64,000 nucleotides of DNA from Bacteroidales bacterium (GCA_016707785.1 JADJGZ010000011.1:75859-139858); one strand, 5' to 3'. Positions 46,197 through 63,535 are shown, counted from the stretch's first letter. The notes: a model not told the origin generated them from the sequence alone. Numbers and translations are program-made.

Positions 46197-46961
46197 ATGA
46201 AACATACCAAAAATGCATTAATCATCGTATTCCTGTTCATCGGCTTAAGCCTGTTTTCACAATCAAAAGAGGGCTATTCGCTGGTGTGGGAGGACAACTT
46301 TAATGGGACTTCCCTTGATACCAGTGCCTGGAGTCATGAAACAGCAGAACCAGGTTGGGTAAATAACGAGTTACAACGATATACAACTGGCAACATTGAG
46401 TTTGCTGAAGGTAACCTGGTAATAATTTCAAAAAAAGAGAATGGGGAATATACCTCCGCTCGTCTGATTACAAAAGGGAAACGAACCTTTACCTACGGAT
46501 TATTTGAAATAAAAGCCAAAATACCCGAAGGTACTGGGACCTGGCCTGCATTGTGGATGCTTGGACAAAATATTGACCAGGTAGGATGGCCTGCCTGTGG
46601 TGAATTGGACATCATGGAACACGTGGGGAAACATCCAAATTTCATTCATTCTACGGTTCATAATCCATCAGGTTATGGTGCCACACCTTATACCGGAATC
46701 ATAGAAATTAACGACCCGTTTAACACCTACCATATTTACAGTATGGAATGGACTAAAGAATATGTGGATTTCTATACCGATGGAAAGTTGGTTTATCATT
46801 ATCAGCCGGAAGTGAAAAATGCTGAAAACTGGCCATTCGACAAGCCTTGCTACTTTATTTTCAATATTGCAATCGGAGGAAATTGGGGAGGCCCGGTGGT
46901 TGATGATACGCTCTTCCCTGCTACAATGACTGTAGATTGGATTAAAGCTTATCAGAAGTAG
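46197..46961 (+). CDS. Glycoside hydrolase family 16 (laminarinase/beta-glucanase type)
   Basis: Signal peptide, WPALWMLG, and the catalytic GELDIMEH (ExDxxE). Confidence 0.85.
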   Translation: MKHTKNALIIVFLFIGLSLFSQSKEGYSLVWEDNFNGTSLDTSAWSHETAEPGWVNNELQRYTTGNIEFAEGNLVIISKKENGEYTSARLITKGKRTFTYGLFEIKAKIPEGTGTWPALWMLGQNIDQVGWPACGELDIMEHVGKHPNFIHSTVHNPSGYGATPYTGIIEINDPFNTYHIYSMEWTKEYVDFYTDGKLVYHYQPEVKNAENWPFDKPCYFIFNIAIGGNWGGPVVDDTLFPATMTVDWIKAYQK

Positions 46962-46962
46962 A

Positions 46963-47202
46963 ATGTCTGATGTCGGATGTCTGATGTCGGATGTCTGATG
47001 TCTAATGTCTAATGTCGGATGCCCCGAAAGGAGCCTTTGGCTTCGGATGTTGGATTGCGGATTGCGGATTGCGGATTGCGGATTGCGGATTGCGGATTGC
47101 GGATTGGAGATTGGGAATTGTAGATGGTGGATGGGACTTGGTCCGCCGGCTGGCGGATGGGACTTGGTCCGCCAGCTGGCGGATGAGACTTGAGACTTGG
47201 GC
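46963..47202. repeat. Mosaic micro-repeat element: 25 heptads in one continuous register (ATGTCKG x8, a 28-nt hairpin unit, ATTGCGG x7, degenerate heptads), then 2 copies of a 26-nt double-hairpin unit
   Basis: Starts 2 nt after the GH16 stop. The register was counted by hand from 46963 to 47137. The units gggacttggtccgccRgctggcggat occur twice (47131..47185). Confidence 0.85.
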
Positions 47203-47457
47203 TTATATTTTTCTTGTAGTCCACTAATTTCCAAGATTCCGTGAGTTAACGAACGAAAGTATTAGTGCTGCATTCGTGCATTCGTGGCATTATATTTCGC
47301 CAGTAGCATTAACTTCCATCAGAATGTAAATACTTCAGGCAAAAAATCAGAACACAAATAGCTTAAATTATTCACAAATTGACACAAATAATTGAATCTT
47401 GCTTGCAGGTCATTTGCATTTATTTGTGTGGCATTTGTGTGATCTTCCCCCTTCAGG

Positions 47458-47574
47458 TACTCAGAGCCACAGGCTCCCCATCGGGGCACTCAGAGCCACA
47501 GGCTCCCCTTCGGGGCACTCGGCACTCAGCACTCAGCACTCAGCACTCAGCACTCAGCACTCAGCACTTAGCAC
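47458..47574. repeat. Two ~29-nt double-hairpin units followed by a (CAGCACT)n array with 6 perfect copies
   Basis: cagagccacaggctccccatcggggcact, cagagccacaggctccccttcggggcact, then cggcact, (cagcact)x6, tagcaca. Ends 33 nt before the next ATG. Confidence 0.85.
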
Positions 47575-47606
47575 AAATCATTAACGCAACACATTAACAA
47601 CGCAAT

Positions 47607-48710
47607 ATGAACGAACCTTCAGCCCGCTCCCCCCGCATTGCATCTATTGATGCCCTGAGAGGATTTGATATGCTGTTCATCATCTTTCTGGATCACTTTT
47701 TCAGCGCACTGAACGTAGGTGTAGGCTCACCTTTTACACAATCACTGGCTAAACAATTTGATCACCCTGAATGGTTCGGTTCTACAATTTATGATATTGT
47801 AATGCCTTTATTCCTGTTTATCGTCGGGGCAGCAATCCCTTTTTCCTTATCCAGACAAAAACAACAGGACTCAGGATTGTCAGCAATATACTTAAAGCTA
47901 ATTCGACGTTTTGTGATCCTTTTTATCCTGGGCTGGATTGTTCAAGGTCATTTACTTGAATTCAATATCGAAACTTTCAGCATTTTCAGCAATACCCTGC
48001 AAGCTATTGCAGTCGGATATCTATTTTCTGCCATTGCGTTTATTCATTTCAGCAGAAAGGTGCGGCTATGGATTTTTGCTTCTTCTCTCATTGTATATAT
48101 TCTGCTTTTAACCATTCCTTATGTGCCGGGTGCTGGCAGAGGTGTATTATTACCGGGAAGCAGCTTTGCCTGGTATGTCGATCAAATTGTTTTTGGACAA
48201 TTCCAGGATGGCACTCAATATACCTGGTTAATAAGTGGACTTGGTTTTATCGCCACCACGCTGACAGGCGTTTTTGCCGGAGAATTGATCAAATCAGACC
48301 TGCCCAGAAAAAAAGTAGCCTTATATCTGTTAATCTGCGGAATAGCAGGAGTACTGCTGGGATTGTTATTAGGAATCTGGCATCCGATCATTAAGAAACT
48401 TTGGACCAGCTCTTTCGTGCTGGCATCCTCTGGTGTTTGTTTTCTGCTGCTAAGTTTCTTCTACTGGATCATCGATGTCAAAGGAAAAGTAAAATGGGCC
48501 TTCCCACTCAGGGTGATCGGAATGAATGCTATAGTAGCTTATGTACTTTCACATGTTTTCAACTTTCACCTGATTGCTGAACAGGTTTTATATGGGTTAA
48601 AGCAATTTGTTGGCAATTTCAATTACCTCTTACTGACTATTGGCGGATTTGGCATTTTGTACCTGATTCTATGGTACATGCACAAAAACAAGACTTTTAT
48701 AAAAGTATAA
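47607..48710 (+). CDS. DUF5009/heparan-alpha-glucosaminide N-acetyltransferase-like polytopic membrane acyltransferase
   Basis: 367 aa. RIASIDALRGFDMLFIIFL... N-terminal signature, and about 10 TM helices. Confidence 0.7.
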   Translation: MNEPSARSPRIASIDALRGFDMLFIIFLDHFFSALNVGVGSPFTQSLAKQFDHPEWFGSTIYDIVMPLFLFIVGAAIPFSLSRQKQQDSGLSAIYLKLIRRFVILFILGWIVQGHLLEFNIETFSIFSNTLQAIAVGYLFSAIAFIHFSRKVRLWIFASSLIVYILLLTIPYVPGAGRGVLLPGSSFAWYVDQIVFGQFQDGTQYTWLISGLGFIATTLTGVFAGELIKSDLPRKKVALYLLICGIAGVLLGLLLGIWHPIIKKLWTSSFVLASSGVCFLLLSFFYWIIDVKGKVKWAFPLRVIGMNAIVAYVLSHVFNFHLIAEQVLYGLKQFVGNFNYLLLTIGGFGILYLILWYMHKNKTFIKV

Positions 48711-48827: not shown

Positions 48828-49687
48828 ATGAAGAATTTGCTGCTTTCGTGTTTGACTTTCTTGCTTTTAACGAGCAGTATTGTTGCGCAGGAAGAAATTA
48901 AGCTCTACCCTAATGGCCCGGCAGAAGAAAGTGGAATAACCGCAAAAGAAACACAATACGGTACCTCCTGGGTAGTAGATGTCACTGAAGCAAGGATGTT
49001 TGCCTATATTGTCCCTAAAGAAAAAGCAAATGGAACAGCAGTTCTGATCTGCCCGGGAGGAGGATATGGAGGGCTTGCAATGGAACATGAAGGGACCATG
49101 GTTGCTCAATGGCTGAATTCTATAGGCATTTCCGCATTTGTACTATACTACCGTATGCCGAACCATCATCCGGAAATCCCTTTGAAAGATGCTCAGACTG
49201 CTATTGAACTCATCCGGAAAAACTCGAAAAAATGGAATATCGACAGGCACAAAGTTGGGATAGCAGGTTTTTCGGCCGGTGGACACCTGGCTTCAACTGT
49301 TGGAACTCAAAATAAGAGAAAAAACCGTCCGGATTTTATGATCCTGGTTTACCCTGTAATCACTATGACCAGAGGTGATGGAACTTGCGAAAACCTGCTT
49401 GGAAAAGATCCCTCAGACCCGCTGATTAATCGATTTTCAACTGACCTTCATGTAACTGAAAAGACGCCGCCAACTTTCTTAGTTGCAGCTGTGGATGATG
49501 ATGTAGTTTCGATTGAACATAGTTATAAATTCTACAAAGCTTTACAAGCCAGGAAAGTGCTATCTGAGATACATGCTTATAAAACCGGGGGCATAGTTTT
49601 GGAATGAAAAAAAAAGGTTTGGAGGTCGACAACTGGCCGGAACTTCTCTATAAATGGTTGCAATTATATTCAAAAGGTAAAGATTAA
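48828..49687 (+). pseudogene. Alpha/beta-hydrolase esterase (GFSAGGH nucleophile elbow), apparently frameshifted before the catalytic His
   Basis: The ORF ends at 49607 as ...HAYKTGGIVLE*. One nt further on, the next frame reads GHSFGMKKKGLEVDNWPELLYKWLQLYSKGKD* to 49687. This restores the expected GGH(G/S)FG catalytic-His motif. The shift sits at a ccggggg run near 49585. Confidence 0.65.
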
Positions 49688-49800
49688 AACATGCCTTTTC
49701 ACCCCTGATTTCTAATCTTATTAACCTACTTCGGACGAATTAAAATCAGTGCATGTATTAATTGGGTATATTCGTACTCTATTTCTTTGGTGGAAAAATT

Positions 49801-51177
49801 ATGTTCGTAGCAGAAGTTGTTTACAACCTTTTAGGGTTGCTGGCACTTAGTGTGCTCTCTGGATTCATATCATCAAGGTATGATAAGAAAAAACTTGTCG
49901 GCAAAATATTGCAGGGAATTATCTTCGGTTTTATCGCCGTTGCTGGCATGATGTTTCCATATGTCCTTAAAGCCGGATTAATTTTTGACGGAAGGTCAAT
50001 TGTAATCAGTCTGTGTACGCTCTTTTTCGGTCCATTACCTGGGTTTATTTCTACCTTCCTTGCATTAGGTTACCGAATTTACATCGGAGGTGCCGGTATT
50101 TTGATGGGGAGTAGTGTAATCGTAAGTTCATTTTTGATAGGATACCTGTTTTACTATTTAAGAAAAAACATGAGATTCAGGGTAACGACCCTGAATATCT
50201 ATTTTTTCGGCTTATTTGTTCATCTGGCAATGATGTTTTCTATGTTTTTACTCCCTCTGTCATTCAGAAGAGAAACTTTCAACTTGTTGACCTTTTCAAT
50301 TATGGGCATTTACCCATTTATTACTTTACTAATTGGAAAAATTCTTTTTGATCAGGAACAAAAACAGGTGGTTTTTACCCTGATCAAAAATAAAGAAGCC
50401 TCAATGCGTGCAACATTATATAGTATTGCTGATGCTGTCATCACAACGGATACTTTCGGAAGCATAATGCAGATGAATAAAGAAGCTGAAGAATTGACCG
50501 GTTGGAAGGAAGAAGAAGCCCAGGGAAAAGATCTGGATGATGTGTATCAAATTTATAATGAAGACACCGGAGACAGGCTTGAATCACCGAAATCGCGAAT
50601 TCAGACAAAAATTCCATCCATTTGGCAAAATGGACATTCATATTTAAAATCCAGAAATACAATTTTTAAACCAATAGCTGAAAGTATTTCTCCTATAATT
50701 GATGACTCAGGTGAAATTGTGGGGATGGTTATTGTATTCAGAGATCAGTCACTTGAACGAAAAAAAATCCAGGAATTGGAAGAGAGCAATCTTTTATTCT
50801 CAACCACTTTCCATTTTAGTCCGGTTCCAATGCTGCTGGTAGCAGTCGATGACGGAGTATTCCATGATGTAAACACGATGTTTTTGGATGAAACCGGGTA
50901 TACACGTGATGAGGTTATTGGACAAAACTCTGTCCAGCTCAACCTATACTTCGACCTTAATGATCGTATAAACATGATCGACAAGATAAGATCTGAAGGA
51001 AAAGCATATGGTTTACCCTTTATCTTGAGAATAAAAGATGGCTCATTAAAACACTGCCTCCTTTCTTCTAACATTATCAAGATTAATGGTCGTGAATTCT
51101 ACCTTACGACTATGTTAAACATAAGTCAGAAAAAAAGAGATGACCAAATCAGGCATATGCATTCAATCTTGCAATGA
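49801..51177 (+). CDS. Sensor module: 5TM LytS-type membrane domain + two PAS domains, with no kinase core
   Basis: Hydrophobic N-terminal ~200 aa, then PAS-like segments (ATLYSIADAVITTD...GWKEEEAQGKDL; FHFSPVPMLLVAV...TGYTRDEVIGQNS). Ends at a TGA that is in frame with the next ORF. Confidence 0.7.
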   Translation: MFVAEVVYNLLGLLALSVLSGFISSRYDKKKLVGKILQGIIFGFIAVAGMMFPYVLKAGLIFDGRSIVISLCTLFFGPLPGFISTFLALGYRIYIGGAGILMGSSVIVSSFLIGYLFYYLRKNMRFRVTTLNIYFFGLFVHLAMMFSMFLLPLSFRRETFNLLTFSIMGIYPFITLLIGKILFDQEQKQVVFTLIKNKEASMRATLYSIADAVITTDTFGSIMQMNKEAEELTGWKEEEAQGKDLDDVYQIYNEDTGDRLESPKSRIQTKIPSIWQNGHSYLKSRNTIFKPIAESISPIIDDSGEIVGMVIVFRDQSLERKKIQELEESNLLFSTTFHFSPVPMLLVAVDDGVFHDVNTMFLDETGYTRDEVIGQNSVQLNLYFDLNDRINMIDKIRSEGKAYGLPFILRIKDGSLKHCLLSSNIIKINGREFYLTTMLNISQKKRDDQIRHMHSILQ

Positions 51178-52998
51178 ATGATTTCATCTGCATCTATGGC
51201 TGATTTCTTTAAAGTTATGAAAAATGAATTGGGAGTATTGGTAGATACAACCAACTTCATATTCGCTTTATATGAAGAAAAGAATGATATGCTTACTGCC
51301 CCTTTTATGGAGGATGAGAAAGATGAAATTGCCCCAACCTGGTCGGCAGCAAGGTCCTTAACTGGCTATGTAGTGAAGCAGGGCAAAACTGTGCTGTTGA
51401 ATAAAGCTGAAATCTCTAAACTTGCAGCAGAAAGTATTATTGACATTATTGGAACCCCTGCAGAATGCTGGCTTGGGGTACCCCTGATCAGCAGTAAAAA
51501 AGTGCTTGGTGTGATTGTCATTCAGAGCTATTCCGATCAAAATGCATTCACTCAGCTCGGAATTGAAATTTTGGAAACCGTTGCAAAGCAATTCACCGTT
51601 TACATCGAGAAAAAACAGATAGAAGAAGAATCTCTCATACTTTCCAAAGCTGTAGTTCAAAGCCCGGTAACAATTGTTATTACAGATCTAAACGGATCAA
51701 TTGAATATGTGAATCCAAAATTTACAGAGCTAACCGGTTATACTCTTAAGGAAGCATTTGGCAAGAATCCGAGGATATTAAAATCCGGAGAACAGTCCTC
51801 AGATTTCTATAAAGAATTATGGGATACGATATCTTCAGGAAAAGAATGGCATGGAGAATTCCACAATAAGAAAAAGGATGGTGAGCTATTTTGGGAATCT
51901 GCAATCATAGCACCTATTATCGATTCCAATAATAAAATTACACATTATGTAGCTCTTAAAGAAGATGTTACCGAAAAGAAAAGATTACTTCTTGAGCTTA
52001 TTTCTGCAAAAGACAGGGCAGAGCATGCAGATAAACTGAAGACATCCTTCTTGCAGAATATGTCACATGAAATCCGCACCCCTTTAAACGGGATTCTCGG
52101 TTTTGCACATTTACTTAACAGGGAAAATATTACTACCGAAAATATCCGTCAATATGCACATGTGATTCAAACCAGTGGAAACAGGTTATTGGAACTTATA
52201 AATAATCTAATTGATATCTCCAAAATTGAATCAGGAACTTTAGAAGTCACCATGAAGGAATTTGAACTCAATAATTTAATTTATAGTGTTTCAGATCAAT
52301 TTAAACCTTTGTCGGCTTCAAAAGGAGTAATGCTGAAAGTTGCATTAGAACCAAGGTCTAAAGAGATCAATATTATTTCTGATGAATTAAAAATACATCA
52401 AATTTTAACCAACTTGATAAACAACGCATTCAAGTTTACAAAAGAAGGAAGCGTTGAAGTTGGATATTCACTGGTTGTGGATAAGATTTCATTTTATGTG
52501 AAAGACACAGGCCCAGGGATTTCTGAAGAAAATCAAACGAAAATATTTGAAAGATTCTTCCAGATAGATTCCTCCATGACCAGGGGATATGAAGGTTCAG
52601 GCCTGGGATTATCTATCTGTAAAGGCCTCGTCGAAATGCTCAAAGGAGAGATATGGGTGGAATCAGTCCTTAACCAGGGGACAATATTTCATTTCACAAT
52701 TCCTTTAATTGAAGGGAAACCTTTGGTAATTAGCGAAGCAAGCCCGGAAGTAAAACCGGTATTCAAATATAAAAGCATATTAATTGCTGAAGATGATGAA
52801 TATAGTTTCCTCTATTTACAGGAAATCTTCAACAACTTTAATGTTCTGATTACACGGGCAACTAACGGCCAGGATGCAGTCGATACATGTAAATCCAGAA
52901 AGGATATTGACCTGGTTATGATGGATATCAAGCAAAAATGGCGCATCGCCTCTGCCTCATCGCTCACTGCATCCACCAGAAACAAGCGCTGGAAGTAG
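51178..52998 (+). CDS. GAF-PAS-HisKA-HATPase_c hybrid histidine kinase with degraded C-terminal receiver
   Basis: H-box SHEIRTPLNGILGF, N-box LINNAFKFT, DTGPGI, GSGLGLSI. The receiver starts ILIAEDDEYS...DLVMMDIK and then loses similarity. No TM segment and no N-terminal sensor of its own. Confidence 0.8.
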   Translation: MISSASMADFFKVMKNELGVLVDTTNFIFALYEEKNDMLTAPFMEDEKDEIAPTWSAARSLTGYVVKQGKTVLLNKAEISKLAAESIIDIIGTPAECWLGVPLISSKKVLGVIVIQSYSDQNAFTQLGIEILETVAKQFTVYIEKKQIEEESLILSKAVVQSPVTIVITDLNGSIEYVNPKFTELTGYTLKEAFGKNPRILKSGEQSSDFYKELWDTISSGKEWHGEFHNKKKDGELFWESAIIAPIIDSNNKITHYVALKEDVTEKKRLLLELISAKDRAEHADKLKTSFLQNMSHEIRTPLNGILGFAHLLNRENITTENIRQYAHVIQTSGNRLLELINNLIDISKIESGTLEVTMKEFELNNLIYSVSDQFKPLSASKGVMLKVALEPRSKEINIISDELKIHQILTNLINNAFKFTKEGSVEVGYSLVVDKISFYVKDTGPGISEENQTKIFERFFQIDSSMTRGYEGSGLGLSICKGLVEMLKGEIWVESVLNQGTIFHFTIPLIEGKPLVISEASPEVKPVFKYKSILIAEDDEYSFLYLQEIFNNFNVLITRATNGQDAVDTCKSRKDIDLVMMDIKQKWRIASASSLTASTRNKRWK

Positions 52999-53322
52999 GG
53001 ACTACCTGAGTAAACCTTCGGACCTGCTTGATCCTAAACAAGTTGTTTAGGTTATTCTGGACGCATTTAATATATTTTATTGAAAATGAACACCTTTGCT
53101 TGAAATCCTTATTTGATAAGGCTACTGGGAATTAAAAAAAAACGATCACACTATGTAAATATTGACATATCTGTATAATTTGATAGAATAAAGATTCACC
53201 GAAAGTAAACTGAAGTGCAGAAATGAGCGCACTAAGCAAATTGCAGGAAACTGCAATTCATGTTTTGAAGGAATTAGAAAATGGAAAGGAACTTAAGCTC
53301 AAATAAGATGAGGATAAATCCA

Positions 53323-54078
53323 TCATTTTACTACAATGGCATCCTCAATCAATATCTTATAAAAATAACCAGAACCAAAGTCCTTATTCAACCTGACAAT
53401 TCCGGAGAAAACTACTGTACTGCCAATTGTCACACTGTCCTGGGTAGAAAGGGCAAGATCAAAATTCCCGGCAAATTCGCTCCCATCTTGAATGTGCACC
53501 CAGTTTTTACCCATTATTTGAGAACTGAAATGGGTTACCTGACCTTTGACCTTGATACTTTTCCCGGCATACCTGGGATGGAATTCGTATAATTCCGCAA
53601 TACTAACACCACCTTTTACCTTTTCAACCTGGATATCAGTCCTTCGGGTCTCTGGTTGTTTCCGAGGCGGAGTTGCCCCCTGTGGCATAGCGTTATCAGA
53701 CATAGATCCCGGTTGGGGCTTCCCAAGCATATCAGGGCTTTCACTTACCTGCTGGACAAAATAAACCTTGTCAAATGTTTTCCCCAACTCTTTACTTGCA
53801 AAATTCTTCATTTCCAAAGCATTGGAAAAATAGAGTGTGACTCCTTCAGAAATATCCTGTCTGGAAATAGCAATCCAATACTCCGACTTCCCCTCTTCAA
53901 CAAGCAGGTAAGTATACTTAGTAGTTTGTGTAACACTTTGTACTTCAACCTGATGGATTCCTTCAGCAAGAGGATCAGAAACAGTTAATTTTTTCCCTGT
54001 ATTCCAAAAAGGAATAGTAATCAGGAATATACCCGCCAGGATAAGAATGGCAAAAATTATATTTTTTTTATTTTTCAT
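53323..54078 (-). CDS. N-terminally anchored protein of unknown function, two beta-rich (OB-like?) halves joined by a Pro/Gln linker
   Basis: 251 aa. MKNKKNIIFAILILAGIFLITIPF anchor. Last gene of the cytochrome cluster, 10 nt after the barrel gene. Confidence 0.6.
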   Translation of the reverse strand: MKNKKNIIFAILILAGIFLITIPFWNTGKKLTVSDPLAEGIHQVEVQSVTQTTKYTYLLVEEGKSEYWIAISRQDISEGVTLYFSNALEMKNFASKELGKTFDKVYFVQQVSESPDMLGKPQPGSMSDNAMPQGATPPRKQPETRRTDIQVEKVKGGVSIAELYEFHPRYAGKSIKVKGQVTHFSSQIMGKNWVHIQDGSEFAGNFDLALSTQDSVTIGSTVVFSGIVRLNKDFGSGYFYKILIEDAIVVK

Positions 54079-54088
54079 CGATTCTGGT

Positions 54089-55705
54089 TTAAAAGCGCTG
54101 AGTCAGACTGAGATAAACCCTCTCATAATTCCTGCTTTTTTCAAATGTACCTTCAACGTTAACAGAGAAATTGAGTTTTTTCATCATCCTCCAGGTAAGA
54201 TTTAACTCAGCCATATTTTGAACCAAAGGTGTTTCAGCACTAAGGAACTTGTATTTTACCCATCGGTAATTCACGCCTCCATAAAGTTTACCTGGCAATA
54301 AATCTCTCGACAATCCGGCACTATAGATACTGCTTGAAAGATAACCTGTTTCAAGAAATGTCGCCGAAATTGTTGCGGCAGCTTTCAGCCAGGGCACATT
54401 ATTATAAGTTGCATAACCATACACATTTTTTGAGGGGTTTGGATCCTGTTTATTGGTCCTGTACCCTGCATTCACTCCAAAAGTCAGGTTCTTGAGAGGA
54501 CGATAATTGATTTGAGCCATATACCCCTGTGTACTTGCTTCTTCGAGTAATCTATCAATAATATCCTTATAGGTTTCATAATAGATGATGTTCTTCCTTG
54601 AACTATAGGAGAGTGACATTGAAACCTGTTTTGAAAACTTATAACGGGCCGTGAAGTACATATTTGATAACTTCAGTTTCTGATCAGCGGAATAGGAACT
54701 GTCCTGAGTATTCCTGGATTTGTTGAACAGGTCAGCTTCCAATGACCCGAAGAGAAAAAGTCCGGGTATAAGGTTGTTCGTGTGTTGAAAATAGGCAAAC
54801 CTTCGGTCAGTTAAACCTTTATTTTTCTGCTCAACAAGGGCAATTGAATTTTGCATGGTCTTATCACCAGAATGATAATCATGTGCCAGGTATCCGCCCA
54901 TTTGCAGTAAAGAGGGATTAAAACTGTAATTTATATAGTCTGGTCTTGATCCTCCTACCAACCCTGCACTGAATGATTTTAACTTTAACTCAACCTGGGC
55001 CCCATCGATAGCGCCAGCATTCGACAACCTGGCATTAATTTTACGTCCTACCCAAACTTTTACTTTCTTATTAAACTCGTAACTCAGTGCCAGGTTATAA
55101 ATCTTCAGTCCGTTGAAAACATCATTCTTTATCTCACCCCATTCATTTAATCGGTGCACAAAACTGATGTAGGTCTCGCCTGAAAGATTGGAACCACCAA
55201 TATTAACAGCATTCATGGAAAAATTATACCGCATTCGCTGTGAAAAGTCAGAAACATTGGAGAAATTGGAATAGGATGCCAATGCAATTCGTCCGCTTAT
55301 GCGCTGTGTGGGTTCAGTATTGATACTATCCTTTGCAGGAGTATTTGTTGTTTTGGCTACCGGTGTTGCAGGAGGTACGATGTTCTCTATTTTATTAACA
55401 GGGATATTATCACGTGTCACTTTCCCGGAAACCTTATCCCCGACAGAATATTTGTCACTTCCAACAGGAACACAAACACAGGAAATAGAGGATAACTCAC
55501 TAACAATCAATGCCGGAATAAAATTATTTGCTTTGATCCTGTAAAGGGTATCACCTGCTTTAATTCCATCGGTAGTTTCGAATTTTACATATATGTTCTG
55601 AGAAGTAGTATATGATATAACACCTTCAACAAAAGAAGACAACTCCTGGCCTGAAATGTTATTTCCAAGTATAAGTACAATAATTATAAGCAGTAATTTC
55701 TTCAT
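54089..55705 (-). CDS. Putative outer-membrane beta-barrel protein (porin-like partner of the multiheme cytochrome)
   Basis: 538 aa. Signal peptide MKKLLLIIIVLILGNNISGQ, a ~130-aa N-terminal soluble domain, then alternating-hydrophobic strands rich in Y/N/G/S, and a terminal ...LSLTQRF (C-terminal Phe). Starts 10 nt after the cytochrome frame ends. Confidence 0.6.
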   Translation of the reverse strand: MKKLLLIIIVLILGNNISGQELSSFVEGVISYTTSQNIYVKFETTDGIKAGDTLYRIKANNFIPALIVSELSSISCVCVPVGSDKYSVGDKVSGKVTRDNIPVNKIENIVPPATPVAKTTNTPAKDSINTEPTQRISGRIALASYSNFSNVSDFSQRMRYNFSMNAVNIGGSNLSGETYISFVHRLNEWGEIKNDVFNGLKIYNLALSYEFNKKVKVWVGRKINARLSNAGAIDGAQVELKLKSFSAGLVGGSRPDYINYSFNPSLLQMGGYLAHDYHSGDKTMQNSIALVEQKNKGLTDRRFAYFQHTNNLIPGLFLFGSLEADLFNKSRNTQDSSYSADQKLKLSNMYFTARYKFSKQVSMSLSYSSRKNIIYYETYKDIIDRLLEEASTQGYMAQINYRPLKNLTFGVNAGYRTNKQDPNPSKNVYGYATYNNVPWLKAAATISATFLETGYLSSSIYSAGLSRDLLPGKLYGGVNYRWVKYKFLSAETPLVQNMAELNLTWRMMKKLNFSVNVEGTFEKSRNYERVYLSLTQRF

Positions 55706-55715
55706 CTACTGATTA

Positions 55716-58700
55716 CTAGTTACTTCTAATGAAATTTCTGATCATTTGATCATTGCCATTTGGATGGCAATTCAAACAAGCAGCACTGTTGTATGAATAC
55801 CCGCTTACTCCCTGGTGGTCATTATTGGTTGAACTCTGAGGATGGCAGGAAGTGGTGCAAGTAAATACAGAGTAATTGGTTGAGTTGGGATGGCAATCAG
55901 AACAAGTGTTCCATTCTCCATTGTGATTTCCGGAATAGATAGGGAAATATTGGTCGTCGTGGTCAAAGGTAGATGGCTGCCATGCTGTTTGAGTGTGGCA
56001 ATCCTCACAGGTAGTTGGGAATTGAGCCGAAACATGGTTAGGGTCATTGGTCTGGTTGTATTCGTTAATATGACAACCGGAACAGGTGTTAGGAGTGTTT
56101 GTATAATTACCGTTATGGCAATCAGAACACTGATTCGCAATAGCAAGATGGGCACCCTTGAGTACATAATAGTTATTATGGATGGGGAAGGTGGCTGGAG
56201 CCCAGCCGGGGTTAGTGGTATGGCAGGTTGCACATTCATTGGGAATGGCCAATGAAACATGGTTAGGATTTGTCGCCTGGTTATAATTGTTCTGGTGACA
56301 TCCTTCGCAGGTATTCGGAGTATTACTGTAACCGTTGGCGTGACACTGCACACAATTGGTTGCAATGGTTGCATGTGCCCCGGTTAATGGATAGGTGGAA
56401 TTATGGTCAAAGGTTGAAGGAACCCATGCAGTCTGTGTATGGCAATCCTGGCAGGTTGTGGCAAATTGGGAAGCCACATGGTTAGGATTGGTTGTCTGGT
56501 TATAATTGTCAATATGACAACCGTCGCAGGTATTGGGAGTAGTGTTATAATTACCATTATGACAGGTGGCGCACTGATCTGCCAGAGGAATATGAGCCCC
56601 TTCCAGCACATAGTAATTATTATGAATTGGGAAACTGGCAGGCGCCCAACCTGGATTTGTCGTGTGACAGCTCGCACATTCATTGGGAATTGCCAGGGAT
56701 ACATGGTTGGGATTAGTAGCCTGCGTATAATTGTTCTGATGGCAACCCTCACAGGTGTTGGGGGTATTGTTATAGCCGTTGGAATGGCACTGCACACAAT
56801 TTGATGCGATCGTAGCATGCGCACCGGTCAAAGGATAGGTATTGTCATGATCGAACGTTGAAGGCACCCAGGCAGTCTGGGTATGGCAATCCTGGCAGGT
56901 GGTGGCAAATTGAGAAGTTACAGTTGCTGGGGGTGTGAAGCTACATGGTTCGGATTTGTGGTCTGGTTATAATTGTCAATATGGCATCCATCACAGGTAT
57001 TGGGGGTAGAATTATAATTCCCATTATGACAATCTGCACATTGTGAAGCTATGGCAACATGAGCACCTTGAAGTGCATAATAGTTGTTATGCACGCTGAA
57101 AGTAGCGGGAGCCCAACCCGGAGCGGTAGTATGACAGCTTGCACAGTCATTTGAGAGACTAAGTGAGGTATGGCTGGGGTTTGCTGACTGATTGTAGTCG
57201 TTGATATGGCAACTGGAACATTCGCTGGATGTACCTGCATATCCATTCGATGGCAGCTGGCACAATCAGTACCGGCATGACCTCCTGTTAAATGGAATGG
57301 AGAAGTATTGTGGTTGAAACTACCGGCTGAGTTCCCATCAGGATGGCAGGCAAGACAAGCTTCAGTTGTGTAAACATACCCCCCTACTCCCTGGTGTTCA
57401 TTGTTAGTGGAATTCTGCTGGTGACAGGAAGATGTACAGGTTACTACTTTATAATTACCTGGATTGGTATGACAGTCGGAACATTGATCCCATTCTCCCT
57501 GGTTTTGTCCTGAATAAATAGGGAAAATATTGTCCGTCATGGTTAAATGTTGCGGGTGTCCAGGATGCTTGCGAATGGCAATCAGCACAGGTAGTCGGGA
57601 ATTGAGCAGTAGAATGTGACGGATCATTCGTCTGGTTGTATTCATCAATATGACATCCTGAGCAGGTATTTGGAGTGTTGGTGTAGCTCCCCTGGTGACA
57701 GGAGGCACAATCATTTCCAATTCCAGCATGTGCACCTTCAAGTACATAATAATTACTATGTGTCGGGAAAGTAGCCGGCGACCAACCCGGACCCGTAGTA
57801 TGACATACCGCACAATCATTGGAGATTCCTATTCCGGTATGGTTAGGGTTGGTGGTCTGATTATAATTATTGGTATGACAACTGGCGCAAACTGTAGAAG
57901 TATTAGTATATTTGTTTGCATGACAGCTATTGCAATCGTCAACAGCATGCCCTCCGGTTAATGGAAATGCTGAAGTATTGTGGTCGAAACTGCCCTGTGA
58001 ATTACCTGCGGGATGGCATTCGAAACAGGCTATACTATTATACGCATATCCTCCAACCCCCTGGTGCTCGTCATCCATATCGGGTTGGTTGTGATCATGA
58101 CAATCAATGCAACTGAATACTTTAAAATTCCCTGGATTGGTATGGCATTCAGAGCAATCATTCCATTCACCCTGGTGACTTCCTGAATAAATAGGAAAAT
58201 ACTGTCCATCGTGATTGAAAGTTGAGGGCGTCCAGGCATTCACATTATGACAATCCTCACAGGTTGTCGGAAACTGGGCTGCAGCATGTGAAGGGTCGTT
58301 TGACTCATTATAATCAGCTGCATGGCATCCAAAACAAGTATTTGGTGTATTGGTATAATTCCCTTTATGACAGGAAAAACAATCATTCGCAATTGACTGA
58401 TGAGCTCCCAATAACGGATAAACTGTATTATGATTAGGAAAGATGCTGGTTTCCAATCAGGAAGAGTTGTAGGGCAGGTTCCACAATCATTTCCAATGCC
58501 GGATGCAATATGATTTGGATTGGTTGTTTGATTATAGGCATTGGTATGACAACTGGAGCAGGTGGTTGGTGTCCCAGCATACTGGAGGTATGACAACTTG
58601 AACAGTTAGTGGTTGTATGGGCTCCCGTTAATGGAAAGCTGGTAGAATTATGGTCAAAAGCGCCATCTCCTGAACCATTTGGATGACAGCCAAAACAAGC

Positions 58701-61309
58701 GATACTATTATAAGTGTAACCGCTAACTCCTTCATGTTCATCATCTGTATCCCCCTGGTTATGCTCATGGCAATTGGTGCAGGTAAATTGAGCATAATTG
58801 GAAGGATTTGTATGACAGTCGGAACAATTATCCCATTCTCCTTTATGAGTTCCTGAATAAATAGGGAAAGACTGGGAATCATGATCTTTATATTCTGCCG
58901 GACTCCATCCCGGATTAAGATTGTGACATTGCTTGCAATCGGTTGAAAATTGTAATGTAATGTGGTTAGGACTTGCTGCAGTATTATAATCCTGCTGATG
59001 ACAGGAAACACAAGCAGCATCAATGCTGGAATATGATCCTGAGGTATGACAGGTTTTACAGTCACTGATTTCATGGCCGCCCGTAAGTGGGAAGAAATTG
59101 TGATTGATACCGGCTCGGACCATTCGAAAGAGTTTTATATTATGACATTCTTCGCAATTTGTTGAATAACCGGCTGGGTGTGATTAGGGTTCGTTGTAGA
59201 CAGGTAGTTATCTTTATGACAATCAAAACATTCAACTCCCAGGGGATCAAAACGTAATGCAGAAGCTGTTCCTAAGCCATTCGCAGCCGGTGAAAGATTA
59301 ATATGACAATCGGAACAATTCGCCTGGGTATGAGGCCCGATTAAAGGGAAACGGCTCATTTGATGCAATTGGGTAGTATTGGTAACCACCCAGGAATTAG
59401 GCGTATGACATCGGGAGCAATCAGTCCCCACAGTTTGCTCATGAATATCGATATGACATTCATTGCAATCAGTGGGAGTCTTTACAAATTCAAGGGAGGT
59501 ATGGCAATCCTTGCAGGAAACAGATTGGTGCTGCCCTACCAATGGGAATTTCGTAACACTATGATCAAAGGCTAATTTGGCAAGGTCAATCTTCCAGCCA
59601 TCCGTAGTATGGCAATCCTTGCAACTGATGGCAAAACCAGTCCCATGGGGAGATTTCTGGGCAAAATACTCCCGAAAATGATCAGTGTGAAAGGATTATT
59701 GATGACAGTCTTCGCATTTGATTTTCTTTGTTTTATAAAGGATGAAAGTTGCTTCACCAATGGTGACAGGTTGGTGGCATTTTTCACAAGGGAGGCCTGA
59801 ATGTTTGCCATCCAATGGAAATTGTGATTTGTTGTGATCAAAAGAAGCTGTTGGTTTGAAAGCTATTGAATTATGGCATTTTTTACAATCTGTCTTTCCA
59901 TTCTCGTCAAACTGCTGCCGATGAATGTCGGTATGACAGTCACTACAATTCATGGATAAATCCTTAAAAGTCTGGTTGGCATGACCCTTCACTTCCTTGT
60001 TAAAATGGCAGTCTCTGCATGTTTTGGTTTCATGTGCACCTTCAAGAATAAACTGTGTGATTTTATGATCAAATTCAACCTGATTCCAACGGCTATTCGA
60101 ATGACAGTTTTCACAATTTTCTTCAGGATAGTATTTCTCTGATATCTTGCCTGTATGAATGTTCTCATGACAGTCTTTACAATTCTTCCCGATCTCTTTA
60201 AATTTCCATTTAGTCTCTTTCTTATGGCATGAAATACAAGGTGTTGCCAGATGTGCACCTTTCAATGGAAATCCTGATGAATTATGTTTCTCAATGGTAA
60301 AAGAAGAGCCTTTGAATCCTTGCACCGAATGGCATTCAGAACAATCAGGTGAAACACCGTTCTTAACAAATTGCTTTTCGTGATAATCCGTATGACAATC
60401 AGTGCAGTGCTTATGCAGCAATGGTGTAGTAAGTTTTATCTTGTGGCACGACTTACAACTCTACTGCCTGGTGCTTGCCTTCTAATTTGAAATCTGTTTT
60501 ACTATGATCAAAATTCTTTACCCACCAACGGCTGTAAAAGACTCAGTATTATGGCATTCAGAACATTTCTGCCCAAATTTGTTATTATGAGCATCTTCAT
60601 GACAATTCGTGCAATTGGCATATTTAACTCCCTTGAATTCCTGGAATTTTACTCCATTTCTCATGGATGTTTTATGACACTCAGCACAGGCAACATCCTG
60701 ATGCCTACCAGTTAGTTTGAAGCCGGATTTCTGATGACTAAATTTAGTGGCAGGCTTGAACTTTTCATTGTCATGACAATCGGCACAACTGCTGGAAAGA
60801 GATTTCTGATGATAATCGGTATGACATGATAAGCAATCTGTCCCCATCCCGAGAAAGGTGTATTTTTTTGCCTTTATCTTGGCATCCTTTATATACTGGG
60901 GTTTATGACAATCCTCACATTTCTTTTTATTGTGGGCTCCAAGGAGTTTATAGCCGGTAAGGGCATGATTGAACTTGGTTTTATCGAAGCGGATGATTTG
61001 AAAATTAACTCCGTGATGGTCACTATGGCAGGATGCACATTGTTTCCCTTTCACCTCAGCGGATGAGTGATATCCCTTATTACTGCTGATCCTGGTCTTC
61101 AGTTCAGTATGGCAGGCCAGACACTTATCATTCGAGACTTTTTCACCCAGGATGTGACATTTGGTGCAATTTGACATTCCCTCCAGATGTGAATGCACCT
61201 TGGCAAGATCTCCCGGAGATATCTGTGATTTAACCTCAACCAAAAAGCAAAGTTGAAACAGGAATAATCCTGTCAGAAGTACTTTAAAGAGGTTAGTAGG
61301 ATAAATCAT
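55716..61309 (-). pseudogene. Giant multiheme c-type cytochrome (~1860 codons, ~69 CXXCH + 2 CXXXCH) split into at least 9 frame segments
   Basis: ORF-track pieces 60518..61309, 59696..60421, 59135..59542, 58434..59123, 58240..58596, 57455..58456, 57049..57819, 56918..57265 and 55716..56867 are collinear. They continue each other's repeat pattern but sit in different frames. Only the first piece has a signal peptide (MIYPTNLFKVLLTGLFLFQLCFLVEVKSQ). Confidence 0.8.
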
Positions 61310-61335: not shown

Positions 61336-62670
61336 TTAAGTGTGTTTCAAAATGGCTTCACCAAACTTTTGGTAATCATAATTCCAGCCTTTGTAAAAAC
61401 TGGATAGGTAATTCACCCCGGCAAAAATATATACGAATTGATTGACAATATGTATCTCCTTGTCCTCCTTCAAATCCTTTAGCAACACAGATTCCTTTAG
61501 TATTTCAACCGGTGAGGTATTAAAGAGTACCCTTACTTTGCCAGAAGATGAAGCCATACCAATTCTTTCGCTATTCATGGGTTTCAAACGGCTAAACGTA
61601 TCACCCCTGTATGATAAGGTTACATTATTATGGTCACAAAGAAGCAACGCTGATTCAATAGCAGAATCACCGCCTCCCACTACCATAATATCTTTACCAC
61701 TGATATCTTCGGGCTCTAATAATCTGTAGGCTACCTTTTCCAGCATTTCACCCGGAACCCCTAGCTTTCGTGGAGTACCTCTCCGGCCAATGGCGATTAA
61801 AACCGTTTTGGTTGAAAGTTTTTCGCCTGCCTGTGTTTCAACCAGAAAATGGTTATTCTCCTTATGAATGGCTTCCACTTTAGTATTTTCCCGGATAGTA
61901 AGCTGATTTTTCCCTAATGCGTTTTGCCATAAATCCAGGAGTTCGGTTTTACTGGTTTCAAATAGTTTGACCTTTCCAAAAAGTGGTAAGTCCATGGCTG
62001 AGGTCATTACAATTTTTTGCCTGGGAAAGGTATAAACTGTCCCTCCAAGTGTGTCCTGTTCCAGGGTCAGAAACTTTAAGTTGTGCTTTTTAGCTGTCAG
62101 GGAAGCTGAAATACCAGCCGGGCCTGCCCCGATTATAATCAAATCATAGGTAGCATCATGACTTCCCCTGAGTGTTCTGACCAGGTTGTCGACCGCCTGT
62201 TTGCCTTGTTCTACAGCATTCTTTATGAGTCCCATCCCTCCCAATTCACCGGCAATATAAATTCCATTGACATTGGTTTCAAAATTCTGATTGACATGGG
62301 GTAAATCAACACCCCGCGTTTCTGTACCAATAACTAACATGATGGCTTGTGTAGGACAGGCATGAAAGCATGCACCATGACCAATACATCTCGATGCATT
62401 AATCGTAGTGGCTTTCCCGTCTTTTATGCCAATAATGTCTTTTTCAGGACATGCAGCAACACAGGCACCGGTTTTGATACAGCTATTTGCATCAATAACC
62501 GGGTGCAGAGAGATAGGCTCAAATAATCCATCCTGTTTGGCCTTGATAATCTTCTCTTCTACTTTTTTAGATTCTCTTTTCTGCTTGCGCAGATAAATGA
62601 AAACCACGATCAGGCAGAATAATACTGCAACTGAATAAATTGCGACCTGTTCTATGAGTATTTCCATCAC
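61336..62670 (-). CDS. Membrane-anchored ferredoxin-domain + FAD/NAD(P)-binding oxidoreductase
   Basis: 444 aa. N-terminal TM helix, two Cys-rich motifs CIKTGACVAACP and CIGHGACFHACP, and dinucleotide folds DLIIIGAGPAGISA and DIMVVGGGDSAIESA. Confidence 0.8.
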   Translation of the reverse strand: MMEILIEQVAIYSVAVLFCLIVVFIYLRKQKRESKKVEEKIIKAKQDGLFEPISLHPVIDANSCIKTGACVAACPEKDIIGIKDGKATTINASRCIGHGACFHACPTQAIMLVIGTETRGVDLPHVNQNFETNVNGIYIAGELGGMGLIKNAVEQGKQAVDNLVRTLRGSHDATYDLIIIGAGPAGISASLTAKKHNLKFLTLEQDTLGGTVYTFPRQKIVMTSAMDLPLFGKVKLFETSKTELLDLWQNALGKNQLTIRENTKVEAIHKENNHFLVETQAGEKLSTKTVLIAIGRRGTPRKLGVPGEMLEKVAYRLLEPEDISGKDIMVVGGGDSAIESALLLCDHNNVTLSYRGDTFSRLKPMNSERIGMASSSGKVRVLFNTSPVEILKESVLLKDLKEDKEIHIVNQFVYIFAGVNYLSSFYKGWNYDYQKFGEAILKHT

Positions 62671-63535
62671 TCAGAATATCCATCTGTAACCAAAAACGAT
62701 AGTGACTCCGACATGAATCACCATAATCACCAGCATTACAAGAGCAAAAGGTAAATGTGCTACATGCCAGTATTTAAATAGGTTCTGCATGGTAACCAGG
62801 CGCTCTATGCGTCGGTTCAGGGAGATTTCATTGTTTACCAACCTGATTACTTGTTTACGTTCTGCTTTGGGTATCTTATTGCTTCTCAGCACATTTTTAC
62901 ACTACGTAGCGCTTTCTTATCCTGTATGTAACGTTTCAATGTACGTGAAAACACATTGCCCTGAAAACGACTGATCTTTGAACGGGTAGAGGCGACAATC
63001 AATTCAAAACTGCCTTCATCCAGCTGTACCGATTGATTTAAGGCTGCTCCAATATCCCCTTTCATATCTCTTATTTCATTCAGACTCAATTCCCGGCCTT
63101 CTATGCTCCTGGGAATTTGAATGTAAATAAATCTTCCGATGATTCCACTAAGAAAACAGCTACCATACTCCAGAAACTGATGGCAACAATACCACCGAAT
63201 TTGAAGGAGGTATGGAATAAAACCAGGATTGGACCTAATGTACATAAAAGATGTGAAATTCAAGCCAATGCTTCAAAAGGCCTAACCTTGAAAATATCCT
63301 GTACCTTTTTCGGGCCATATACAGAATGACTCAAAAATCATGAATAAAGAACCAATGATCCCGATTCCATGACCAAGAATGCCACTGGGTTTGAGTATGG
63401 AATGATCCGGATGGAAAGCTCTCTCTTCCATGCTGGTAATATAGTAAGCGTATCCCTTCATGAAAAGGGCAACCAGGCAACGATCACAATTAATGAAAGA
63501 GTTACCAGGTAGATTCTGTGAGCTGTTTTAGTCAT
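62671..63535 (-). pseudogene. His-rich polytopic membrane protein (possible heme-b/quinone-side module), multiply frameshifted
   Basis: Track pieces 62671..62892 and 62886..63263 are in different frames. My translation upstream needs about 3 further shifts to read MTKTAHRIYLVTLSLIVIVAWLPF / FMKGYAYYITSMEERAFHPDHSILKPSGILGHGIGIIGSLFMIF / VILYMARKRYRIFSRLGLLKHWLEFHIF / LCTLGPILVLFHTSFKFGGIVAISFWSMVAVF / SGIIGRFIYIQIPRS... / LRSNKIPKAERK...LFKYWHVAHLPFALVMLVIMVIHVGVTIVFGYRWIF. Confidence 0.6.

Follow-up and report, generated by a model that had tools for sequence, protein, structure and literature searches.

A six-gene porin-cytochrome-type cluster with separate 20-heme and 52-heme cytochromes in a Bacteroidales genome, a candidate electron conduit across the cell envelope

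The closest described counterparts of the locus treated here are the PCC3 gene clusters, which were defined from genomes (He et al. 2017, PMC5566968). These clusters encode a porin (with 22 strands in Leptothrix), a multiheme cytochrome of the periplasm (median 21 hemes, repeats of ~66 amino acids [aa]) and an extracellular one (median 34, at most 85 hemes), with 22-39 aa per heme, as well as an inner-membrane protein of ~300 aa with five helices, of which the fourth carries SGXXG and the third and fifth carry WX3HX13H (PMC5566968). PCC3 was reported mainly in Proteobacteria (PMC5566968), and the Gallionellaceae have been surveyed for it (PMC9900912). In the present work, we analysed a window of 64,000 nucleotides (nt) from a Bacteroidales bacterium (GCA_016707785.1, JADJGZ010000011.1:75859-139858; all positions are counted from its first letter). 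On its minus strand, at 53.3-63.5 kb, lies what is likely a six-gene cluster of the porin-cytochrome type, which encodes separate 20-heme and 52-heme cytochromes (here gene 1 and gene 2), would provide a conduit through the envelope, and most likely owes its frame breaks to artefacts rather than to decay.

Compared by described features rather than by sequence, the cluster is PCC3-like, matching in gene set, motifs, heme numbers and aa per heme. As in PCC3, a beta-barrel protein is encoded within the cluster, here with a predicted ~22 strands and adjacent in all loci; the inner-membrane protein, of 289 aa, has SGXXG and two WX3HX13H motifs, all of them invariant; and a 20-heme cytochrome is accompanied by a second heme-rich, repetitive one, at ~25-27 aa per heme (22-39 in PCC3). 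Unlike PCC3, the present cluster is found in Bacteroidota and Ignavibacteria, its first cytochrome is fixed at 20 hemes (21, 24 or 27 in PCC3), its large cytochrome consists of 75-aa triheme units that follow a 3n+1 rule, and its two cytochrome genes overlap. Besides, a protein combining a transmembrane helix, two [4Fe-4S] clusters and an FAD/NAD(P)-binding domain is always part of it, a subunit for which we found no mention in the accessible parts of the PCC3 literature. So far as the searchable literature shows, five traits are new: a flavoprotein in every cluster, a first cytochrome fixed at 20 hemes, cytochrome genes that overlap, triheme units of 75 aa, and heme numbers that obey 3n+1.

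A six-frame count of the minus-strand segment 55716-61309 gives 70 CXXCH and two CX3CH motifs, while ~0.1 CXXCH would be expected there at the background rate. This density is far above chance, since the remainder of the 64-kb window holds only ~8 CXXCH over six frames. Among the open reading frames (ORFs) listed for 54-64 kb, nine are cytochrome-like; distributed over the three minus-strand frames, they span 55716-61309. An earlier note on this DNA, made from the sequence alone, had read them as one collinear frame for a single ~1860-residue protein with one signal peptide. Its motif count (~69 CXXCH and two CXXXCH) was recovered in full by a frameshift-aware dynamic-programming path of 1865 codons that contains 69 CXXCH and two CX3CH (CTSSCH and CTTSCH). 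The notion of one frame did not survive: this path crosses eight frameshifts and an in-frame TAA (59696-59698), so that at least eight shifts and a stop would have to be bridged, and comparison with a 94%-identical locus (L006, see below) exposed four more in gene 2, of which two interrupt the coding sequence of a second signal peptide. Between frames, the junctions consist of 1-nt indels, the stop codon, a site that reads CXXCP, and ~23 nt of garbled sequence near 56922-56946.

Translation of gene 1 does end at the TAA (59696-59698), and genes 1 and 2 encode separate secreted c-type cytochromes. Gene 1 (61309-59696, minus strand) specifies a 20-heme cytochrome c of ~537 aa with its own signal peptide and contains two compensating frameshifts at ~60523 and ~60461. 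Gene 2 (59717-55716, minus strand) specifies a giant cytochrome c, ~1327 aa in orthologues, and is interrupted in the window by ~10 indels; its 52 heme sites comprise 49 CXXCH, two CX3CH and one degenerate CXXCP, in which the histidine has become a proline. Two signal peptides are thus present where one had been noted, the second (MRRLSSII..., with AQ followed by KSPHG at its end) beginning at 59717 across the end of the upstream gene. As read directly from the sequence, the two coding regions share 22 nt (59696-59717, minus strand): in AAATGCGAAGACTGTCATCAATAA, one frame gives KCEDCHQ and a stop, that is, the last heme motif and the end of gene 1, and the other gives MRRLSSI, the beginning of gene 2, so that the overlap takes in the gene 2 start codon (ATG at 59717) and the first seven codons. 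The same overlap occurs in L001, L002, L004, L005 and L006, related loci that range from Bacteroidales to Melioribacteraceae, and ORF coordinates of both cytochromes overlap in most of 61 genome loci. Genes 1 and 2 are therefore probably translationally coupled, and the conserved MRRLS or MYKLS N-terminus of the giant cytochromes can be ascribed to the overlap with the end of gene 1.

Intact relatives carry the same division. The closest relative at the protein level (P0024, 1327 aa, 84% identity) aligns only to the C-terminal 71% of the concatenated query, and its mature N-terminus corresponds to the window sequence directly after the TAA. The contig that encodes it (L001) is intact, syntenic and 74% identical to the window at the nucleotide level, with genes in the order 289-aa membrane protein, 444-aa Fer4/Pyr_redox protein, 536-aa cytochrome, 1327-aa cytochrome, 539-aa and 246-aa protein. 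Its 536-aa cytochrome has 20 CXXCH and its 1327-aa cytochrome 50 CXXCH plus two CX3CH; heme positions agree one for one between window and L001, with the histidine-to-proline site as the sole exception. In the orthologues, the stop of gene 1 is conserved at the position of the TAA. A cytochrome of 525-611 aa next to a separate giant one is also found in L002-L006, and the two are encoded apart in all 61 species-level genome loci with enough upstream DNA, hence in 67 of 67 related loci (L001-L006 plus the 61). Across these 61, the first cytochrome has exactly 20 hemes in 58, and the second has 16-73. An alternative genetic code or programmed frameshifting was considered and ruled out, the orthologues being plain, uninterrupted ORFs with a real stop.

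A single collinear gene of ~5.6 kb, coding for ~1860 residues with ~70 hemes behind one N-terminal signal peptide, is accordingly extremely improbable, even though its pieces all lie on one strand, are collinear and look like cytochromes, and even though some distant relatives of 1.9-2.2 thousand aa align over 97% of the concatenated query. These long relatives start with a gene 2-type signal peptide and SPHG motif and have a separate 20-heme gene upstream (L003, L004), so that the high coverage reflects similarity among repeats and not a fusion. Moreover, in every orthologous locus the TAA ends a gene of 525-611 aa and is followed by a second signal peptide. The intact orthologues, with two genes and a signal peptide for each, thus overturn the proposal of a single protein. 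There is no ~70-heme polypeptide here, because the orthologues encode separate 20-heme and 52-heme proteins; the "70-heme protein" is the product of reading through a real stop and through assembly errors.

In gene 2, the spacing of heme motifs cycles as 35-15-25, and cutting after each third motif resolves the protein into one N-terminal heme and 17 tandem triheme units of 68-88 aa (~75 aa) in two subtypes. All 17 fit the template W.P..F.H....FPL.G.H.....CxxCH-x9-CxxCH...YN...NP.H......CxxCH, and each contains three CXXCH and three additional conserved histidines, a composition that fits bis-His electron-transfer hemes, as judged from the motifs. The modules A and B of the earlier note stand up well in these terms, A being two a-type units and B one b-type unit (YFPIYSG...EW), and the proposed order, (divergent)-B-A-B-A-B-A-A-A-B, is reproduced, one unit after the other, in L001, the intact orthologue. 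Both CX3CH sites fall in b-type units and are kept in L001. In 101 of 107 full-length family members (median 25 aa per heme), the number of heme motifs, which ranges from 40 to 115, equals 3n+1, and the rule extends to the second cytochrome of the 61 genome loci, down to 16 hemes. Going by these sequences, the length of the second cytochrome would evolve through gain and loss of triheme units, from 16 to 115 hemes and almost always as 3n+1, next to a 20-heme partner that stays fixed. Gene 1 has 26.8 aa per heme (20 in 536 aa) and gene 2 25.5 (52 in 1327 aa). The unit spacings of gene 1, (28,16) and (25,16), are in the reverse order of those of gene 2 (15,25). The c7-type order is ~24 then 14, as in PpcA.

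Pfam assigns the cytochromes to the class III (c3/c7) cytochrome c superfamily: gene 2 matches Cytochrome_C7, Cytochrom_c3_2, Cytochrom_CIII and Mtrc-MtrF_II-IV, the concatenated protein scores far above the gathering cut-offs (PF14522, 209.7 bits against 24.8; PF14537, 141.1 against 25; PF02085, 107.4 against 22.9), and precomputed annotation lists these domains for every relative. Among the NCBIfam models, none attains its cut-off with either cytochrome, with the barrel protein, or with the 246-aa and 289-aa proteins, and a PDB sequence search with the whole of gene 2 returned no matches. The earlier statement that the NPNH/YFPIYSG pair belongs to no described family was hence broadly right, at the level of NCBIfam and whole-protein PDB matches, although generic class III Pfam domains do recognize it. 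A profile of the gene 2 unit finds the c3-like domain of the Desulfovibrio nine-heme cytochrome (1duw, E 1.2e-5) and c7/PpcA only at E about 0.1, while the sole PDB sequence match of gene 1 is GSU1996 (3ov0, E 0.004).

GSU1996, the Geobacter "nanowire" cytochrome and a c7-type triheme polymer, resembles the present proteins in being a single polypeptide of tandem class III triheme units, yet it has 12 hemes rather than 20 and 52. The corresponding model TIGR04257 (nanowire_3heme) gives 24.6 bits for gene 1, below its cut-off of 40, and no match for gene 2. The spacing of gene 2 (15-25-35) differs from the c7-type repeat (~25-15-35) that gene 1 resembles, and the gene 2 unit profile is closer to the c3-like domain of the nine-heme cytochrome c than to c7. 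With the nine- and 16-heme cytochromes 9HcA and HmcA of Desulfovibrio, its best PDB profile match, the unit shares the pattern H-x5-CxxCH-x10-CxxCH-x~22-CxxCH; those, however, are compact periplasmic proteins of tetraheme c3-like domains, with neither long triheme arrays nor a barrel partner. As for the filament cytochromes OmcS, OmcE and OmcZ, the unit profile reached OmcS only at E 0.46, and no whole-protein match was found in the PDB or by Foldseek, the latter with a low-confidence model. A further likeness, the encoding of a multiheme cytochrome side by side with a large outer-membrane barrel, connects the cluster to MtrCAB of Shewanella and OmaB-OmbB-OmcB of Geobacter. Unlike these, it has no lipoprotein outer cytochrome and its heme numbers are 2-5 times larger; the ~22 strands of its barrel differ from the 26 of MtrB, and the MtrA/DmsE family model (TIGR03508) scores 42 and 47 bits against a cut-off of 192.

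We consider the ~12 frame breaks in the cytochrome region to be probably errors of an error-prone long-read assembly. The closest relative of the window, L006 (GCA_016708515.1; 94-96% DNA identity), is a metagenome-assembled genome (MAG) from Danish wastewater. Over 10.7 kb, it differs from the window by 51 indels, the majority of 1 nt and many beside homopolymers, and at most of them the base is missing in the window rather than in L006. Missing single bases linked to homopolymers are a typical signature of long-read error. L006 has undamaged genes for the 289-aa and 444-aa proteins and an undamaged gene 1, its gene 2 breaks at positions other than in the window, and the degenerate heme site CGTCP of the window reads CGTCH there. 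The ratio of nonsynonymous to synonymous substitution rates (dN/dS) between the two is 0.047 for gene 2, 0.079 for gene 1, 0.071 for the intact barrel gene and 0.026 for the 444-aa gene. With L001 as outgroup, 18 lineage-specific amino-acid changes in gene 2 fall on the window and 36 on L006, several in each lineage stemming from junction artefacts. Since selection is not relaxed, the breaks are best read as errors that arose independently in two error-prone assemblies, and the genes are therefore probably intact in the organism.

The opposite reading, that the breaks are real and the cluster consists of decaying pseudogenes in this organism, seems quite unlikely to us, although it has the distribution of the breaks on its side: ~30 indels are packed into 8 kb (55.7-63.5 kb), whereas the other 53 kb hold long intact ORFs. 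The change of histidine to proline in a heme motif, the garbled insertion of 23 nt and the fact that gene 2 is broken in L006 as well would also suit decay. Yet dN/dS of 0.05-0.08 is the same as in intact neighbours, amino-acid changes are not in surplus on the window lineage, and at least 20 neutral indels would predict many neutral substitutions, which were not seen. Nor do the breaks coincide between the two assemblies, L006 retaining three of the genes whole, and the indels are chiefly of 1 nt, often at homopolymers, the window usually being short of the base. What tells against assembly error is its locality, with indels concentrated at 55.7-63.5 kb and few in coding DNA elsewhere in the window; uniform sequencing error thus fails as an explanation. 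At 43.3-49.7 kb, for instance, only three indels within long ORFs separate the window from L006. Isolated 1-nt differences from L006 in long ORFs outside the cluster are found at 48505 (GGG in the window, GGGG in L006), 49588 and 45922, so that assembly errors are not limited to the cytochrome region but just denser there. Repeat-blocked polishing was considered as a source of this local density and is a weak candidate, because identity among the DNA repeats within gene 2 is no more than 61-77% and non-repetitive neighbours are affected too. One stretch, 56922-57011 (minus strand) at the boundary of units 12 and 13, is garbled differently in the two assemblies, the window being ~23 nt longer there than L001 and ~26 nt shorter than L006; either count of modules at this boundary may depart from that in the organism.

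Upstream of the cytochromes, two genes encode membrane-associated partners. The first (62671-63535, minus strand) is broken in the window by at least five one-base indels and has syntenic intact counterparts in L001-L006; it encodes an inner-membrane protein, putatively a di-heme cytochrome b, of 289 aa in orthologues. In an alignment of five sequences, W91-x3-H95-x13-H109, S131-G-x-x-G135 and W258-x3-H262-x13-H276 are invariant; of the five hydrophobic segments read off this alignment, two bear WX3HX13H and another SGxxG. Two b hemes are classically ligated by two such histidine pairs with a spacing of 14, as in cytochrome b and the ferric-reductase domain. The WX3HX13H pairs of PCC3 are likewise taken as ligands of two b hemes (PMC5566968). 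Pfam gives weak matches to DUF4405 and cytochrome b561, and a profile of the 289-aa protein against the PDB yielded noise only. The family comprises 2845 representative clusters at E<=1e-3.

The second partner gene (61336-62670, minus strand) encodes a membrane-anchored FeS-flavoprotein of 444 aa, composed of an N-terminal transmembrane helix, a ferredoxin domain for two [4Fe-4S] clusters (Fer4_10/Fer4_7, residues 56-111) and an FAD/NAD(P)-binding domain (Pyr_redox_3/Pyr_redox_2, residues 175-420) with Rossmann motifs for FAD and NAD(P). It is 84% identical to the 444-aa protein of L001, and its nearest NCBIfam models, YpdA and TrxR, both stay under their cut-offs. In the window, the gene has three 1-nt homopolymer deletions near its 3' end. 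The protein should face the cytoplasm, because basic residues follow the N-terminal transmembrane helix. The inner-membrane protein and the flavoprotein also adjoin in a lineage with only 33% identity in the former and with other partners: at L087 10001-12346 and L088 3501-5846, the 33%-identical membrane protein is directly followed by a protein of the same transmembrane-2[4Fe-4S]-FAD/NAD(P) make-up, and the pair sits next to a 993-aa AMIN-domain protein in place of barrel and giant cytochrome. The two together look like a portable module.

Downstream, the intact gene at 54089-55705 (minus strand) encodes a 538-aa outer-membrane beta-barrel protein with signal peptide, small N-terminal beta domain, disordered linker, a barrel of ~22 predicted strands and the C-terminal end ...TQRF. 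It lies directly downstream of the giant cytochrome in all loci examined. An AlphaFold2 model (mean pLDDT 78) places the ~22 strands across residues 135 to 538, and a Foldseek search against the PDB returned large outer-membrane barrels throughout, among them FimD/PapC ushers, TonB-dependent receptors and, at rank 9, MtrB (6r2q_B), with TM-scores of 0.3-0.45. Residues 25-95 form the separate small beta domain, in which the stretch ...SSISCVC... contains a C-x-C motif (C78 is invariant and C76 conserved to at least 90%), and the linker, residues 97-130, joins it to the barrel; the domain may serve for docking or redox reactions in the periplasm. The last gene (53323-54078, minus strand) encodes a 251-aa protein with an N-terminal transmembrane or signal anchor, for which Pfam offers a sub-threshold GW match only; it is syntenic in L001-L004 and L006, being kept downstream in Bacteroidota loci and absent from the Melioribacteraceae locus L005.

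We infer how these parts would work together, including their cofactors, localisation, direction of flow and physiological role, from the gene set, motifs and conservation reported above. The FAD/NAD(P)H and 2[4Fe-4S] protein, facing the cytoplasm, would feed the five-helix di-heme-b protein, which would carry electrons over the inner membrane to the 20-heme cytochrome in the periplasm. The latter would pass them on to the 52-heme wire, docked in or threaded through the ~22-strand outer-membrane barrel, and the wire would link cell metabolism with extracellular acceptors or donors. The full path would then run from NAD(P)H through FAD, FeS clusters, two b hemes, the 20-heme cytochrome and the 52-heme wire to an extracellular acceptor. 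Taken one step further, the cluster might give Bacteroidota and Ignavibacteria a widespread outlet for electrons that is independent of quinones, leading from NAD(P)H to extracellular acceptors and tuned in its reach by the number of triheme units; this we put forward tentatively, as a possibility rather than as the expected outcome.

Several points weigh against a conduit. The members of the cluster, and PCC3 itself, are known from genes alone, and the PCC3 genes of Sideroxydans ES-1 were found to be down-regulated on Fe(II). Heme b binding and NAD(P)H specificity are deduced from motifs alone. The likeness of the barrel to MtrB is generic, because its TM-score is about 0.3 and all matches lie at 0.3-0.45. 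For the intact 383-aa C-terminal ORF of gene 2, an AlphaFold2 model from a 40-sequence alignment was of poor quality, with a pLDDT of 64 and a pTM of 0.36, and Foldseek found no match for it. Finally, inspection of the sequences revealed a type I signal peptide on the giant cytochrome, and neither a lipobox nor a C-terminal domain of the type IX secretion system (T9SS) in either cytochrome, so that export of the giant cytochrome past the outer membrane is unproven.

The missing lipobox and T9SS sorting domain would suit a different role, in which the cytochromes store electrons in the periplasm (capacitor) or serve their uptake rather than forming an outward respiratory conduit. A capacitor function has been proposed for such proteins (PMC11495043, PMC9900912), and the original proposal for PCC3 was Fe(II) oxidation (PMC5566968). 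Nevertheless, a dedicated barrel of ~22 predicted strands is always encoded directly downstream, and an NAD(P)H-linked flavoprotein should be thermodynamically better suited to outward flow. The heme chain of GSU1996 extends by about 1 nm per heme; by analogy, a 52-heme chain would exceed the width of the periplasm. We therefore rate storage or uptake as rather unlikely, and retain the outward conduit as the working model for the cluster.

Proteins of this kind are anything but uncommon. We retrieved >275 relatives of the concatenated protein, of 1000-2826 aa with 40-115 heme motifs and mostly full length among the matches listed, nearly all of which start with M(R)RLSxII...AQ(S/K)PHGxxFxxxCxxCH; the partner barrel is present in 277 species-level genomes. 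The earlier assertion that cytochromes of this size are rare has to be abandoned in view of these numbers. Many relatives are proteins of Saprospiraceae MAGs with 64-103 hemes, and the best 80 genome matches are all MAGs. Giant secreted Saprospiraceae cytochromes with very many hemes, from MAGs of activated sludge, were termed "undescribed" in 2024 (PMC11495043). These are probably the same protein family as gene 2; that study provides motif counts only, and analyses of gene cluster, unit and partners are absent from it. Unnamed putative porin-cytochrome clusters in Bacteroidetes MAGs were mentioned by He et al. (2019). In the searchable literature, we found only passing mentions of a Bacteroidota system of this kind (PMC11495043, PMC6344600).

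Some observations concern the surroundings of the cluster. Adjoining it at 49660-53341 (plus strand) are ~3.7 kb that are absent from the 94-96%-identical L006 and contain two abutting sensor genes, one for a 5TMR-LYT+PAS protein (471 aa) and one for a GAF-PAS-HisKA-HATPase protein (606 aa); the pair might represent a strain-specific regulator, or a single gene that an error has divided. The intergenic stretch 46960-47575 harbours 7-nt tandem arrays (ATGTCTG, GGATTGC and GCACTCA, ~8 copies each) along with 26- and 29-nt repeats, whose copy numbers are unequal between window and L006. Besides, two loci of the Saprospiraceae type, L003 (21953-22663) and L004 (16977-20099), have a gene for a fused ResB/CcsA protein (system II cytochrome c biogenesis) at the cluster's end or close to it; none was seen beside the cluster in the window.

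If the proposed conduit is true, Bacteroidales, Lentimicrobiaceae, Saprospiraceae and Ignavibacteria could trade electrons with minerals, humics or partner cells. The group in question is large and ecologically dominant, the barrel occurring in the 277 species-level genomes and the inner-membrane protein in thousands of protein clusters. Should the quinone-independent outlet also hold, extracellular respiration by an as yet undescribed route would be within reach of many "fermentative" Bacteroidota that live in sludge, lakes and sediments. Either way, the fixed 20-heme partner, the 3n+1 rule, the overlapping start codon and the invariant pair of inner-membrane protein and flavoprotein offer starting points for structural and genetic studies of the construction, length control and export of very long heme wires.

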